NCBI RefSeq assembly: GCF_036507355.1
Contig: NZ_AP027878.1
Source of the DNA: Escherichia coli
Lineage (GTDB): Bacteria > Pseudomonadota > Gammaproteobacteria > Enterobacterales > Enterobacteriaceae
Reading direction: 5' to 3' (one strand)
DNA length: 64,000 bases
The notes under the pieces were generated by a model that worked only from the letters and a program-made list of their open reading frames with translations, searched no databases and was not told the origin of the DNA. The position numbers and the translations under genes were made by a program. The number at the start of each line of letters is the position of its first letter. Within the stretch, counting starts at the first letter, position 1. Positions 43,636 to 48,354 of this stretch are shown here, one piece after another.

Positions 43636-43652
43636 AGATTTATTAGAGCAAT
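43636..43652 (-). promoter_or_regulatory. C1 operator
   Basis: Reverse complement reads ATTGCTCTAATAAATCT (16/17); upstream of the 43457 operon. Confidence 0.65.
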
Positions 43653-44158
43653 TATTGTTGATGAAGAAGCGCATTTTCATACTCCCTGACCATTAACGTA
43701 AGCACGCCGTGCCTCCTGAAAACACGCGCCACTTCAATCTTATCTTCCAGCGCGAACGCGATTTTACTTAGACCAATTTTCTTAAGGAGATCAATCTTTG
43801 CTGGGCCGTCATTTCTGTCATCTGTGGCAGGACGCATAGATAGCAAAGGCTCAGCCCCGTTTGTTACGTACTTCCGCAGCCAGGCTCGTGTTTTATCCCT
43901 TGCGATCTCACAGCGCCCGGTTACAAACCAGACCGTGTAAACGTTAAATAACTGGCGCACCATATCAATAACTGGAGTGATGGGAGTATCGGTGTCACAG
44001 GCGAGATTAAACTCGTTCCAGTCCTTTGTTAATGCACCTTTACCTGGTGGCGGAAGCAAATGCAGTCTGTCTTCAGTTGCCTCTGATATTGTTCCATCAA
44101 TATCGACTATGACGATATACGGACGTTCCTGGTGTGCGTGTTTATTGAAAATACTCAA
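43652..44158 (-). CDS. HAD-superfamily phosphatase-like protein
   Basis: 168 aa; N-terminal VIVDIDGTI (DxDGT motif). Confidence 0.6.
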   Translation of the reverse strand: MSIFNKHAHQERPYIVIVDIDGTISEATEDRLHLLPPPGKGALTKDWNEFNLACDTDTPITPVIDMVRQLFNVYTVWFVTGRCEIARDKTRAWLRKYVTNGAEPLLSMRPATDDRNDGPAKIDLLKKIGLSKIAFALEDKIEVARVFRRHGVLTLMVREYENALLHQQ

Positions 44159-44231
44159 ATGCCCTCCTCATTGGACGAAAAAAATGCTGGTGGGACGCAC
44201 TCCACCAGCATTAAAAGTGACACTGTAACTA

Positions 44232-45494
44232 TCAGCGAACGTAAATAGTGCCGCCGTTCTCTTTTTCCCATGCATCGCTACGTGCATAGCAAACATCGAG
44301 AAGTCTTCTTGCCGCTGTTTCCTCTAAACCCAATTCGACAACCAACTGCTCATGACGGCGGGTAACCACATCAAACAGGGTATGCAGCCCTTTAGTTGCC
44401 AGATCATCAATGAATTCCGGTTCGAACGGCAGCTCTGCATCTGCCAACATAACCTCTTGCGCCCACTCAACTCGACGGACCAATTCCGGGCGGCGGCTTT
44501 CCATCTCTTTACAGATTAATTCATGGAAGAACTCTACCCAACCTTCCGGCTGGAACTCGCGGAAAATTGCCAACGGCTGGAAGTTTGGCATCAACCATTC
44601 GTTGATTCGGATATCAATGGCATAGCCCATGTCGCAGCAGAACTGATAAGCAAAGTCCAGCTTAGACACGATATAAGGACGCTCGTTATTGAACTCTTTA
44701 GGCGATGAGATCCCATAAGCCAGGAGGCGCGGGAAGAAGGATATTTGCCCTAACGTCGGATGAAGTTTGCTTGCAGGGAAACGGCGCTCAGTAATGCCAT
44801 ACATTTCCTTCTTGAGCGTCGCAAATTTGGCATTCTCATTAACCAGCGCGGTAACCTCTGCTTTTTTATTAGCAAATGCCACGCGCGCTTCGCTTGCATC
44901 TTTAATAGTTTTTTTGAGCTGTTGGTTAAGGTCGGCGACCTGCTTACGCAGTTCCTGTCGCTCGCTTTTAGCTTTGTTATAGCGTTTCTCAAGGTTAAAA
45001 GGATCAAGTTTCATGATCTCTTTATATTGAGATTTTAGCGTTGAAATCTGTGAGTTCCGCAGTTCAACCATCGCGGTCATTTCATTGAGTTTTGTTTCCA
45101 GCTCAATGCTTATACGTTCGGCATTATCAGCACGCTGGTTGGCGTCATGCGTCGCATCGTCGATCGCGTCCTGTTGCTGGCGTTTCAAATGTTCAATTTG
45201 CAGCTGAAGCTCTTCAATTTCTTTATCCTTCAGACCGAGATCCAACTGCATATTTTCAGCTGCATCTACCAGGGAGTTATGGCTATCAGCTTCTGCGTTA
45301 TAAACATCAATAAGCTGTGCGTGAAGCATCTCCGCTGACTGAACCGCATTATCAAAAAAACGCGCTGTGAGGTCATCACAACTAACGCGGCGTTGCGCGG
45401 CCCGGATGTTCTGGATAATGGCCGGGATACCGGCATTCAGGACGTCAGGGATAGATACATTTTCGATTGATTGGTTTTGTGCTGAAGTGATCAT
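44232..45494 (-). CDS. Coiled-coil protein with a C-terminal globular domain
   Basis: 420 aa. Confidence 0.5.
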   Translation of the reverse strand: MITSAQNQSIENVSIPDVLNAGIPAIIQNIRAAQRRVSCDDLTARFFDNAVQSAEMLHAQLIDVYNAEADSHNSLVDAAENMQLDLGLKDKEIEELQLQIEHLKRQQQDAIDDATHDANQRADNAERISIELETKLNEMTAMVELRNSQISTLKSQYKEIMKLDPFNLEKRYNKAKSERQELRKQVADLNQQLKKTIKDASEARVAFANKKAEVTALVNENAKFATLKKEMYGITERRFPASKLHPTLGQISFFPRLLAYGISSPKEFNNERPYIVSKLDFAYQFCCDMGYAIDIRINEWLMPNFQPLAIFREFQPEGWVEFFHELICKEMESRRPELVRRVEWAQEVMLADAELPFEPEFIDDLATKGLHTLFDVVTRRHEQLVVELGLEETAARRLLDVCYARSDAWEKENGGTIYVR

Positions 45495-45495
45495 T

Positions 45496-45714
45496 TCAAA
45501 GTTCCGTATTAGCTTGTGCTTCGGTCATTTTTCCTAAGTATGAAGGAGGAAGGACTACGCAATTTGTATCCAGTCCCTCACCTATGGCAGCCTGTAAAAT
45601 TCTGGCTAAGGTGAGTCTCTTGTTGCGATACCTGGTGATGACATGCCTGATACCGCCGGTCGGCGTAACAAAGGCGATCAGCCAGTAGTGATATTTCCGT
45701 CGGAATGGCCACAT
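45496..45714 (-). CDS. Small hypothetical protein
   Basis: 72 aa; first ORF downstream of the operator pair. Confidence 0.3.
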   Translation of the reverse strand: MWPFRRKYHYWLIAFVTPTGGIRHVITRYRNKRLTLARILQAAIGEGLDTNCVVLPPSYLGKMTEAQANTEL

Positions 45715-45794: not shown

Positions 45795-45795
45795 A

Positions 45796-46497
45796 TTATT
45801 CTGATTCTCGCTCAAAAAATGAGCTGATAAGGGGAAGCCAATCCTCTGACACTTCGCGAGGTCGCGGTTTGCCGTGGAAAAAGATTATTCGGCAGTCTTT
45901 TGGTAATGCCCCATTCCCCCTGGAGTAACGCGCGCTCGCATATTTTGAACCAGGTTCCACAACATCGGCCTTGTAACTTACAAACCATCCTGGATACAGA
46001 TCCTGAAATGCTGGTGTATCATCGCCCATAACCTTTCGTAAGAACCCCTGGTCACCCCAACACTCAGTAGTGACACAACGAGAAATCCAACCTTCCGGAT
46101 CTTGCCAGAATGAACTCCAGATATGCGCTTTAACACTATTTGGTATCCACAGGGCACCGCTGCCACGATATTGTGGATGGTAAAAATCCCTAAGCATGGT
46201 GAAGCTGGTTGGTGGATGCTCTAGGATTGGGCGTATATCACCGGCAATAACCGTGTCCAAATCCAGATAGAACAGATCATCGGTTATATCCGGTCGGAAC
46301 AACTCGATTTTCGCCCACCAGCCACGGCACTTTTGCCACTGGTTGATCAATGGGACAACTTTGACGCCAGGTACATGTAAACGCTTCAGGTCTGTCAGGC
46401 AAATAATTTCATAGCCTTTTGGCAGTTGATTAACCAGCCACTGCACATCGGAAGCGTTATAGTCACCACCAGAGCGAAAAACTAAAGCAATCTTCAT
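45796..46497 (-). CDS. Glycosyltransferase-like protein
   Basis: 233 aa; DxD-like YLDLDTV motif; assignment tentative. Confidence 0.4.
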
Positions 46498-47186
46498 GCT
46501 GCACCATCACCTTTCACTTTCATCAATGTCAGGTTTCCGCAAAATACGGCACCAGTGTCGATATACTGCTGATTCCAGAATGTCTTCGGGCTTTTCACCG
46601 GAGTGTGACCAAAGATAAAACGATCTGCGCCCGAAATTTCGCCACCAATATCATCCATCGAATCACTGATACGCTCGCGCGCCCAGACAACGTTGAAAAG
46701 CGGCACCTCCTTACCGAATTGGTATTCATTATCCGGATAGTCGGCATGGGCTATAACGATAGTTTCTTGCCCGGTGTTCAGCTCAATGATATAGGGCAGA
46801 CGCTTTACCAGCTCCACCAGCGCCCAGGCTAATATTTCCTGATCAGTGTCCAGCATGAAGAACCATTGTCCGCCATTCATTAGCCAGTTATTCACGTTGC
46901 CATCTGGACTTAACGCATCAATCATCAGCCGCTCATGGTTCCCCATCACTGCCCTGAACCAGGGCATCTGCAATAGTTCCAGACATTCGACATTTTCAGT
47001 ACCGCGATCGATAAGGTCGCCGACCGATATCAGTAAATCCTGCGCCGGGTCAAAATCCACACGATGGAGTTCGGACATCAGTCTGGTGTAGCAACCATGC
47101 AGATCACCAACAACCCAGACATTCCTGTATTTGGTACCGTCGATACGGTGATAAATTGTGGGTGCCATCATGTATTCTTCAGCCAT
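46494..47186 (-). CDS. Calcineurin-like metallophosphoesterase (lambda phosphatase / ApaH type)
   Basis: GDLHGCY ... GDLIDRG ... GNHE ... GHT motifs. Confidence 0.8.
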
Positions 47187-47794
47187 TCTTTAAGAGTCAT
47201 CTGCGGAATACCTCCCATTTTCCCGCATGAAACAACGTCAATCTGTTCACGCGCAGACTGGAATAACAAAGGCAGGTGACTTAGATTTTTTGGCGTGCCG
47301 CCGGAGTGAACGCGTAGTTCTTGCGTAGCGTCAACGCCCACCAGAGCTACATGTTTGAATCCGATATGGAAAGCCAGGTTCAGAGCACCATATGCACTAT
47401 TGCCGCTGGCAATTTCATTCTCATCTTCGCAAAGGCCGAAATGTGCGGACCAGCGCCACGCCCACCACTCGGGAGAATTCGTATTTTTTGGCTCCATGCC
47501 GCGTTCAGCCACACGACGGAAGCACAGAACGCCATCTCTGACTTCACGTTCTTTAACATCGGGTAGTGCCATGCAATAACAAACACCACGGCGACGGCGG
47601 CCACGACCAACGCGCCGCATATTGTCTGGGGATGGATCAAGGGTGAAAAAATAAGAAGCGCGGTTAAGCCAGTCGATGGCCCCATTGACCGCTATAATCG
47701 GCACTCCGCGCGGCGCAACAAAGTTTGCGGCGCTTGGGCCACTGCCGACGATAATAACGCGATCACTGCCTCTAAATTTATTCTTGGGAAACAT
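47168..47794 (-). CDS. Rossmann-like GSGPS-motif protein, paralogue 1
   Basis: 208 aa; [10 protein letters not shown] ... [11 protein letters not shown] ... [10 protein letters not shown] ... ALVGVD; paralogous to the next ORF. Confidence 0.5.
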
Positions 47795-48354
47795 TGAATT
47801 GCACTGCTCCTACTTGCATTCAAAATATGTAAATCTGCGTGTTTTTTGCGGGTATCCAGGAACTGCTGTTGCCATTTTGAAATAGACACCTGCGTTGGAT
47901 TCCGTAGTGCTTGAGGGTGCGCGCCATGCCAATGAAGGCCGTTTTGCAGAGAACAGTCATAGCCGACTAATACCACTACTTCAGCCCCTGATTCAGCAGC
48001 CAGACTGATAGCCTGCGCGCCGCTATTTACCCCTTCCGCCGGTCCACAATATCGCCTGTACTCCAACGAAAATGATTTCGCCGCCGCCAGGTTGGCTGTC
48101 ACTTTGCGGAATCTCCCTCCCGGTATGGTGGATCCGTATTGCTTCCACCATGACAAATCACCGGCGTATAAGGCATAAATGTCATCGAACATCTGCCAGG
48201 AATTGTTAACCGCGATGATTGAACAGCCAGTTTTTTCTATAGCAGCACAGTCCTCACGAGTGAGTGACGGACCGCTACCGACACAAAAAACAGTCCTAGT
48301 CGCCCTGGGTGGTATGTTCATTCTCAGCTGCAAATTCAGCCTCCAGGCGAGCAT
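47692..48354 (-). CDS. Rossmann-like GSGPS-motif protein, paralogue 2
   Basis: 220 aa; FCVGSGPSL ... IIAVNNSWQMF ... NSGAQAISLA ... VLVGYD. Confidence 0.5.
   Translation of the reverse strand: MLAWRLNLQLRMNIPPRATRTVFCVGSGPSLTREDCAAIEKTGCSIIAVNNSWQMFDDIYALYAGDLSWWKQYGSTIPGGRFRKVTANLAAAKSFSLEYRRYCGPAEGVNSGAQAISLAAESGAEVVVLVGYDCSLQNGLHWHGAHPQALRNPTQVSISKWQQQFLDTRKKHADLHILNASRSSAIQCFPRINLEAVIALLSSAVAQAPQTLLRRAECRL

Follow-up and report, generated by a model that had tools for sequence, protein, structure and literature searches.

The 64,000-nt window analysed here (Escherichia coli contig NZ_AP027878.1) contains a run of minus-strand genes which an earlier note, made from the sequence alone, had described as one repressor-controlled cluster of sugar- and phosphate-handling enzymes. 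Over its full length, a 5.2-kb query around this stretch has 99.1% identity to bacteriophage P1 (AF234172, NC_005856) and 98-99% identity to P7, SJ46, RCS47 and further phage-plasmids of the P1 type. The flagged run of genes is thereby identified as the pmgN-pap region of P1 with the genes pmgO, pmgP, ppp, pmgQ, pmgR, pmgS and pap. All open reading frames (ORFs) of the earlier note were found at their coordinates on the minus strand (Table 1). The region has long been annotated in GenBank under both P1 accessions, and neither the ORFs nor the operators are new. What is new is a widespread, uncharacterised cassette of Maf-like and GT8 genes (± GT4, ± methyltransferase) that is kept among the head and neck genes of phages. 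P1, D3 and PAJU2 are tractable models for it.

The DxD glycosyltransferase-like protein of the cluster is PmgQ. Its AlphaFold2 model (predicted local distance difference test, pLDDT, of 94.5) was searched with Foldseek, resulting in Gat1 (6mw5, E 8.6e-9) as best match, followed by glycogenin, GlyE and LgtC (range E 1e-8 to 1e-7). These matches to GT8 enzymes have a probability of 1.0 and template modelling (TM) scores of about 0.56-0.62. A PmgQ family profile likewise finds GT8 chains among the PDB sequences, at E 1.6e-6 (6mw5) and 2.5e-3. D79-L-D81 (the DxD) is invariant in an alignment of 33 homologues, as are the motifs WWxK, DLDT, GDQ, SYK and FHGxPxP. Together with the GT8 fold, the invariant DxD bears out what had been read from the sequence. 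PmgQ resembles the retaining GT8 glycosyltransferases glycogenin, Gat1 of the Skp1 pathway and GlyE of the PsrP pathway in its GT-A fold, its DxD and its comparable size. It differs from them by an identity of only 11-16%, by the lack of a Pfam GT8 match and by its own invariant motifs WWxK, GDQ, SYK and FHGxPxP. Judged by these comparisons, PmgQ represents a GT8-like sister family rather than a curated GT8 member. The model suggests a GT8-type retaining hexosyltransferase employing the DxD, with activity and donor both predicted from this likeness. Relatives of PmgQ form 41 clusters in the protein database and give at least 569 matches in IMG/VR.

PmgO and PmgP are the two GSGPS proteins that had been proposed to be paralogous. 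Pairwise BLASTP aligns them over the GSGPS stretch only (E 0.003), and hhalign of the two family profiles gives 99.5% probability with E 1.4e-22, indicating that both are homologous, distant paralogues. Single-sequence PDB searches with PmgO, PmgP or PmgQ returned noise only, so that family alignments were needed. PmgP corresponds to phrog_2111 and has 247 relatives among 1.84 billion representatives. PF01973 stays below threshold for the P1 proteins PmgO and PmgP (E 0.12 and 1.1), and many PmgO homologues with 38-74% identity carry precomputed PF01973. The central fold of the Maf catalytic domain was recovered for PmgO and PmgP. We compared conserved residues with E324 and D415 of Maf (5mu5) and its conserved Ser. 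D66 and D133 are invariant in PmgO and S111 (in NSG) nearly so; in PmgP, D53 and S133 are invariant and D155 is nearly invariant. The distance from Ser to Asp is 22 in the PmgO/PmgP comparison vs 23 in CbMaf and GkMaf, whereby these are spacings in sequence.

The likeness to Maf has clear limits. Maf flagellin nonulosonic-acid glycosyltransferases (PF01973) have a chain of ~630 aa with large extra regions (632 aa in the Maf compared), whereas PmgO and PmgP comprise 208-220 aa, that is, little else than the catalytic core. The genomic context of pmgO and pmgP is not flagellar and their acceptor is not flagellin. PmgO and PmgP work like Maf at most and are not Maf orthologues. By this analogy they are probably minimal Maf/sialyltransferase-like enzymes that use a CMP-activated sugar acid (CMP, cytidine monophosphate). 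Maf enzymes expressed in E. coli BL21 add 3-deoxy-D-manno-oct-2-ulosonic acid (Kdo) to Ser/Thr from the CMP-Kdo of the host (bioRxiv 10.1101/2020.06.03.131540).

A different reading of the same fold is that PmgO and PmgP resemble MptE and thiamin pyrophosphokinase and are not glycosyltransferases at all, such that the cassette would make or modify a small molecule or a phosphorylated intermediate. The PF01973 fold does include pyrophosphokinases, which counts against a transferase assignment. Maf is however the best match by both methods, with 162 residues covered vs 126 for the MptE/thiamin-pyrophosphokinase-like alternative, and the weak matches of both family profiles to PDB sequences are to the sialyltransferase CstII, not to kinases. 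Moreover the fusion to a GT8 protein and the linkage to GT4, glucosyltransferase and methyltransferase genes, both described below, point to glycan assembly. We consider the pyrophosphokinase reading rather unlikely.

Which genes belong together was evaluated in 49 distant phage loci (619 kb) that were chosen for a PmgQ-like gene of 25-48% identity and searched for the P1 neighbours with tblastn. A PmgO-like gene is present in 33 of the 49 loci and a PmgP-like gene in 10. Nearly always the PmgO/P-like gene is located directly upstream of the PmgQ-like gene on the same strand. For Ppp, Pap, PmgS, PmgR, PmgN, PmgL, PmgM, PmgT-V and Dbn, tblastn detected no homologue in these loci. Natural fusions occur as PmgP-PmgQ (P0119, P0194), PmgQ-PmgP (P0209), PmgQ-PmgP-methyltransferase (P0161) and PmgO-PmgP (P0092). 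The cassette is also present in phiNP, in the D3/PAJU2 group and among jumbo phages that infect Xanthomonas, Stenotrophomonas or Caulobacter. Two chromosomal PmgO homologues were looked up; one lies in a prophage (Hafnia), the other in a degraded prophage-like region (Serratia). Taken together, the comparison suggests that PmgO, PmgP and PmgQ are the sole evolutionarily coherent unit of the region, a putative glycosylation cassette to which Dbn very probably belongs as well.

Dbn is the GT-B-like protein encoded beside the helicase gene, adjoining ban at a distance of 6 kb from the cluster. It matches Pfam Glycos_transf_1 (PF00534, E 2.3e-5) with residues 229-315, the C-terminal nucleotide-sugar domain. 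The suspicion that this gene belongs with the cluster is supported by two cultured phages. In EP_H11 the PmgP-like and PmgQ-like genes enclose a Dbn homologue (48% identity), which takes the slot held by ppp in P1, and in IME392 the Dbn-like and PmgQ-like matches are adjacent on the same strand, 30 nt apart. The EP_H11 genes overlap at their ends and follow one another as PmgO-like, PmgP-like (unannotated), Dbn-like and PmgQ-like. The unannotated PmgP-like ORF (OP688485, 8394-9032; 207 bits with the hidden Markov model) occupies the space that separates the PmgO-like from the Dbn-like gene, leading to an O-P-Dbn-Q operon. Four phage records other than P1 contain a Dbn homologue, and each of them contains a PmgQ homologue too, out of only 11 such PmgQ records among about 50,000. 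The link is seen only in the cultured EP_H11 and IME392, and tblastn found no Dbn homologue in the 49 distant loci. Dbn is very probably the fourth member of the glycosylation pathway.

The genomic position of the cassette points to the virion. Neighbouring genes in the 49 loci were clustered and the clusters named by PHROGs; they comprise the major head protein (two families), adaptor Ad1, head closure Hc1, Neck1, tail terminator and major tail protein. The interval from the major capsid gene to the Neck1/tail-terminator genes harbours the cassette in about 31 of the 49 loci, and contigs annotated with Pfam show PmgQ homologues between capsid and head-closure genes. The typical order is TerL-portal-protease-capsid-[O-(methyltransferase)-Q]-Ad1-Hc1-Neck1, with insertion after Ad1 or after Hc1 as alternatives. 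Because the cassette is inserted at three points, beside capsids of two families and with several types of protease, the placement between capsid and neck is not one inherited arrangement. In some head modules the cassette has genes for collagen-like, fibre-like and Ser/Thr/Pro-repeat proteins as neighbours. Accessory genes of sugar type that travel with it include a methyltransferase cluster, a further glucosyltransferase (phrog_854) and a cupin. Where the context could otherwise be resolved, it is a lysis-terminase junction of a lambdoid prophage (L007, phiNP and a Hafnia prophage), likewise expressed late.

The same association with virion structural genes is found in the cultured phages D3 and PAJU2, which carry a PmgO-like gene, an unknown gene of ~275 aa and a methyltransferase gene within the head-neck block. 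In P1 itself it is confined to the adjacency of pmgR. In the P7 record the same genes bear the names hdmA-D ('head morphogenesis'), with a reference to their similarity to D3 orf7. The three genes of D3 and PAJU2 represent a variant trio that has no PmgQ-like gene and consists of a PmgO-like protein, an unknown protein of 275-280 aa (phrog_6804 in PAJU2) and a methyltransferase (Table 1). ORF010 of PAJU2 (AP009624, 3974-4543), the PmgO homologue, is labelled 'structural protein' like the capsid and major tail genes of that record. If the label rests on identification of virion proteins, a PmgO-like enzyme may be carried in the PAJU2 particle.

From gene identities, folds, paralogy, co-occurrence, fusions and genomic position we infer enzymatic activity, donor sugars and a virion target, namely a soluble protein-glycosylation cassette that would act on virion protein. 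A membrane-type hydrophobic segment was not found in any cassette enzyme, and the proteins are predicted to be soluble and cytoplasmic. Their closest functional analogues act on proteins: Maf on Ser/Thr of flagellin, and glycogenin, Gat1 and GlyE on proteins or protein-linked glycans. C1 represses the cassette in the lysogen, and the enzymes are made during lytic growth. PmgO, PmgP, PmgQ and probably Dbn would act in sequence to build a short O-linked glycan. The acceptor would be one or more virion proteins of head, neck or head fibres, modified during assembly in the cytoplasm. Host nucleotide sugars would serve as donors, CMP-Kdo for the Maf-like pair and uridine diphosphate (UDP)-hexoses for PmgQ and Dbn; to our knowledge, CMP-Kdo is the sole CMP-sugar made by a K-12 host. 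Ppp and Pap are independently mobile genes that landed in or beside the cassette. For this mechanism as a whole we consider the chances to be even. A more specific and more far-reaching version is a so far unrecognised virion-glycosylation system in P1 and the D3 group as well as in hundreds of uncultured proteobacterial phages, in which Maf-core enzymes of ~200 residues attach Kdo-type sugar acids from host CMP-Kdo to Ser/Thr of a head or neck protein, with GT8, GT4 and in some cases methyltransferases extending and capping the glycan. We regard this version as doubtful.

A comparable system is known from mycobacteriophages, whose capsid and tail-tube proteins are glycosylated by enzymes that the phages themselves encode (Freeman 2023, cited after PMC12363180). 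Soluble phage-encoded glycosyltransferases are common to that system (Che8, Corndog, Myrna) and to the P1 cassette, the role having been demonstrated there and being proposed here, and for neither is a laboratory plaque phenotype expected. The P1-type cassette differs by its Proteobacteria hosts and by the Maf-like/PF01973 pair with GT8 (and GT4). In P1 it is moreover located outside the head module. No study of the cassette was found in the literature on pmgO/P/Q/S, capsid glycosylation, and DUF115 or Maf in phages.

Several observations weigh against virion glycosylation. PmgQ has no Pfam match even at E <= 10, including Glyco_transf_8. The P1 copy lies outside the head module under early C1-controlled promoters, and the EP_H11 cassette is surrounded by small genes, most of them unannotated, not far from a DNA ligase gene. 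In the Pantoea chromosome (L003/L004, 8001-8633) a PmgQ homologue (49% identity) stands by itself between lpdA and acnB, with no phage genes in its vicinity, which looks like a domesticated copy with a non-virion substrate. The cassette-adjacent capsid proteins were inspected for Ser/Thr-rich C-terminal extensions as acceptor, and only short, ordinary tails without a candidate acceptor were found. Two cryo-electron microscopy papers on P1 never use the words glycan or glycosyl and report no glycan on P1 virions. In addition, 24 of 29 single-gene knockouts plaque normally (Gonzales 2022, PMC9024508), pmgN-Q, pmgS, pap and dbn are listed as non-essential (Piya 2023 table, PMC10695390, citing Gonzales 2022), and knock-downs of pmgO, pmgP, ppp, pmgQ, pmgS, pap and dbn by CRISPR interference (CRISPRi) plate normally (PMC10695390, PMC9024508). 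The earlier note had named the lack of a phenotype and of modified nucleosides after deletion of the cluster as an outcome that would refute it. The published single deletions point that way in part, but normal plating does not exclude a conditional role.

A target outside the virion was considered as well. Bacterial GT-A toxins such as NleB and Lgt glycosylate host proteins, and the cassette might in the same way modify a host protein of the cytoplasm in order to gain control of the cell or to disarm it, leaving the virion untouched. The early C1 control in P1 and the surroundings of the EP_H11 copy would suit such a role, as would the fact that several top PmgQ analogues (glycogenin, Gat1, GlyE) are protein-directed GT8 enzymes. 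An early take-over however agrees poorly with embedding between capsid and neck in the majority of the distant loci, and the single deletions are without effect on plating. We hold a host-protein target to be quite unlikely.

The envelope of the host is another conceivable target. The lipopolysaccharide (LPS) core is the receptor of P1; a GT8 enzyme akin to the glucosyl/galactosyltransferases of the LPS core could, together with the Maf-like enzymes, alter it during lytic growth and thereby block superinfection or prevent progeny from sticking to debris. The top structural matches of PmgQ include the lipo-oligosaccharide GT8 enzyme LgtC, Kdo belongs to the chemistry of LPS, and both the Pantoea homologue and the early promoters of P1 would fit. 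Yet most phages transcribe the cassette together with their head and neck genes, which is too late for remodelling the outer membrane. It is repressed in the P1 lysogen and thus does not serve lysogenic conversion, the enzymes are without membrane-targeting segments, and the best analogue of PmgO acts on protein, not on lipid. This makes the envelope an unlikely target. The earlier note had listed surface modification among its candidates, and this holds only if the surface of the virion is meant.

Transcription divides the region further. For C1 operators the window was scanned with the 17-mer consensus ATTGCTCTAATAAATTT, allowing <=3 mismatches, resulting in 15 matches vs 0.36 expected by chance. 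They include 43636-43652, 45729-45745 and 45778-45794, with the last two inverted relative to each other. Together with the P1 record this confirms the postulated control by a repressor. Op83 deviates from the 17-mer consensus at more than 3 positions and hence is not among the 15 matches. The inverted operators Op86b and Op86a with an inner stem followed by a U-run fold with -29.8 kcal/mol (z = -11.75); the P1 record assigns both to pmgR-pmgS. Three transcription units result: pmgN-O-P-ppp-Q from Op83, pmgR-S (then pap) from Op86a/b and pmgT-V from Op88. The operators and the hairpin pointed out before are thus present, but the first of them (Op88) governs the pmgT operon instead of the cluster, and Op83 as well as pmgR had been missed. 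Late read-through from LPpmgL into pmgM and the pmgN-pmgQ genes could occur. Since a terminator-like hairpin separates pmgS from pap, pap is suggested to be only weakly coupled to the pmgR-pmgS transcript.

Table 1. Features of the pmgN-pap region, of the dbn-ban genes and of the variant trio. Positions refer to the window unless a phage is given; the P1 annotation (AF234172) was transferred to it (window = locus L001 + 35399).
Feature	Position	Strand	Description
pmgN	48296..48451	-	51 aa, first gene of operon; P1 annotation
pmgO	47692..48354	-	minimal Maf/sialyltransferase-like (PF01973 superfamily), putative CMP-sugar glycosyltransferase
pmgP	47168..47794	-	distant pmgO paralogue, same fold family; phrog_2111
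ppp	46494..47186	-	lambda-type Ser/Thr/Tyr metallophosphatase; inserted accessory gene
pmgQ	45796..46497	-	GT-A fold, predicted GT8-like (retaining-type) glycosyltransferase, DxD motif
pmgR	45496..45714	-	essential; head completion/joining (PMC9024508)
pmgS	44232..45494	-	420-aa coiled-coil protein, non-essential; after pmgR in P1-like phages
pap	43652..44158	-	stand-alone HAD (haloacid dehalogenase) phosphatase, polynucleotide-kinase-phosphatase type; variable accessory gene
dbn	54289..55287	-	predicted GT-B (GT4-like) glycosyltransferase, ban operon, 6 kb off
ban	55287-56657	-	DnaB-like gene adjoining dbn
Op83 (Oppp) and predicted promoter PpmgN	48494..48510	+	P1 record; controls pmgN-pmgO-pmgP-ppp-pmgQ
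Op86b/Op86a inverted C1 operators, stem, U-tract, promoter PpmgR	45729..45794	.	boundary of two transcription units
Op88 (OpmgT) C1 operator	43636..43652	-	controls downstream pmgT-U-V operon
late promoter LPpmgL	49432..49450	-	upstream of pmgL; AF234172 annotation
terminator-like hairpin between pmgS and pap	44183..44212	-	11 bp stem, T-run
variant trio	PAJU2 (L091) 3974-5917		head-neck block
variant trio, split	D3 (L092) orf7 and orf12-13		connector and KilA-N genes between PmgO-like orf7 and the orf12-13 pair
variant trio	Hafnia prophage (L094) 7001-9007		lysis-terminase junction

The two phosphatases were recognised correctly by type. Ppp is a lambda-phosphatase-type metallophosphoesterase by its family profile (NF008516, PrpA/PrpB/lambda-type phosphatases, E 3.3e-81; phrog_246, E 5e-113), and its translation contains GDLHG, GDLIDRG and GNHE, all three metal-binding motifs. 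It was the only cluster protein named by the NCBIfam search. With 272 vs 326 bits it stays under the equivalog cut-offs and hence is not PrpA/PrpB itself. According to the P1 record it is 64% identical to the lambda protein phosphatase NinI, and both are dispensable accessory genes. Unlike NinI and the E. coli PrpA/PrpB, Ppp is encoded inside a glycosyltransferase operon, which is only the case in the P1/P7 lineage. Pap is the HAD phosphatase-like protein (PF25109, HAD_PNKP, E 3e-8; Pnkp1 4xrp, E 2.2e-4) with the DIDGT motif. Its 168 aa are covered by the phosphatase domain alone, without a P-loop 5'-kinase domain. The label 'polynucleotide kinase' in some records is an over-annotation, since the kinase domain is missing.

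In divergent P1-like phages (L037-L039, L041; PmgQ 51-58% identical) pmgL-M-O-P-Q-R-S is kept, ppp is missing and PmgP abuts PmgQ; pap was not detected in L037-L041. Phage D6 has ppp alone among lambdoid-type accessory genes, and D6 is not in the complete lists of PmgQ and Dbn matches. As Ppp and Pap are missing from the divergent P1-like phages and from the 49 distant loci, and ppp stands alone in D6, both are mobile add-ons and not conserved partners of the cassette.

These absences do not support a single sugar and phosphate module as outlined in the earlier note, i.e. glycosyltransferases and phosphatases under common C1 control that glycosylate phage nucleic acid or hydrolyse defence-signalling nucleotides. 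It is true that all genes are C1-controlled, that Pap is of the end-healing HAD type, that the cassette of EP_H11 is near a DNA ligase gene and that lambda-type phosphatases hydrolyse 2',3'-cyclic nucleotides in vitro. However, Ppp and Pap are not co-conserved with the transferases, and the genes fall into three separate transcription units. Hydrolysis of signalling nucleotides found no backing in a PADLOC search, which gave no match for any enzyme of the cluster but is a weak test as it employs defence-system and not anti-defence models; nor was there a family link or a match to known defence or anti-defence families. Glycosylation of nucleic acid is disfavoured by the position of the cassette, usually among head and neck and not among replication genes. 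Moreover, P1 is not known to encode a hydroxymethylase, nor is glycosylation of its DNA known. The single-module reading is very unlikely and the weakest of the alternatives to virion glycosylation.

Deletion of pmgR leads to unjoined heads and tails (Gonzales 2022, PMC9024508). The gene directly follows the cassette in P1 and is kept after pmgQ in the divergent P1-like phages. PmgR is a genuine head-completion protein, and PmgS is its conserved coiled-coil partner. PmgS, the coiled-coil protein already recognised as such, has coiled-coil-type matches only; a PADLOC match to LmuB was rejected as coiled-coil noise. For pmgN, CRISPRi indicates 'essential' and the deletion is viable (Piya 2023, PMC10695390). 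Because of this viability the CRISPRi score is likely a polar effect.

Annotation details of the region were noted in addition. The annotated pmgO start lies 59 nt inside pmgN (overlap 48296-48354). As PmgO homologues align from about residue 20 on and residues 4-13 of the PmgO model have a pLDDT < 50, the true start is probably internal to the annotated ORF. Upstream of the cassette, pmgL and pmgM (48518-49344) are kept in all P1-like relatives examined. PmgM matches Holliday-junction-resolvase and endonuclease PHROGs with residues 103-176, and PmgL has a Cys-rich zinc-ribbon-like stretch (CRYCNESIESGIYCDAEC). At the other end, between Op88 with its hairpin and the start of pmgT, an unannotated ORF of 28 codons (43467-43553, minus strand) encodes the very hydrophobic peptide MNTAFKIIMAAIYFWLFSITFGGIVAHG, with AGGAG 8 nt upstream; the P1 record shows no coding sequence there. 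pmgT (42528-43457) and pmgU (42388-42723) share 196 nt, each in its own reading frame. In phage D6 the same overlapping pmgT/pmgU matches fall within one annotated coding sequence, which hints at a frameshift or a mis-annotation.

P1 is much used in genetics, yet about a dozen of its genes bear the placeholder name 'pmg'. The region is now divided into parts that can be tested separately. If Kdo-type sugar acids are indeed attached as outlined, O-linked Kdo glycoproteins would be common on phage particles. If the virions are not glycosylated, the strong preference for a place between capsid and neck still wants explanation. If they are, very small Maf-type enzymes would become available for glyco-engineering, and glycosylated virion proteins would be found beyond actinobacteriophages in phages of Gram-negative hosts, which would bear on antibody recognition in phage therapy, on particle stability and on adhesion.

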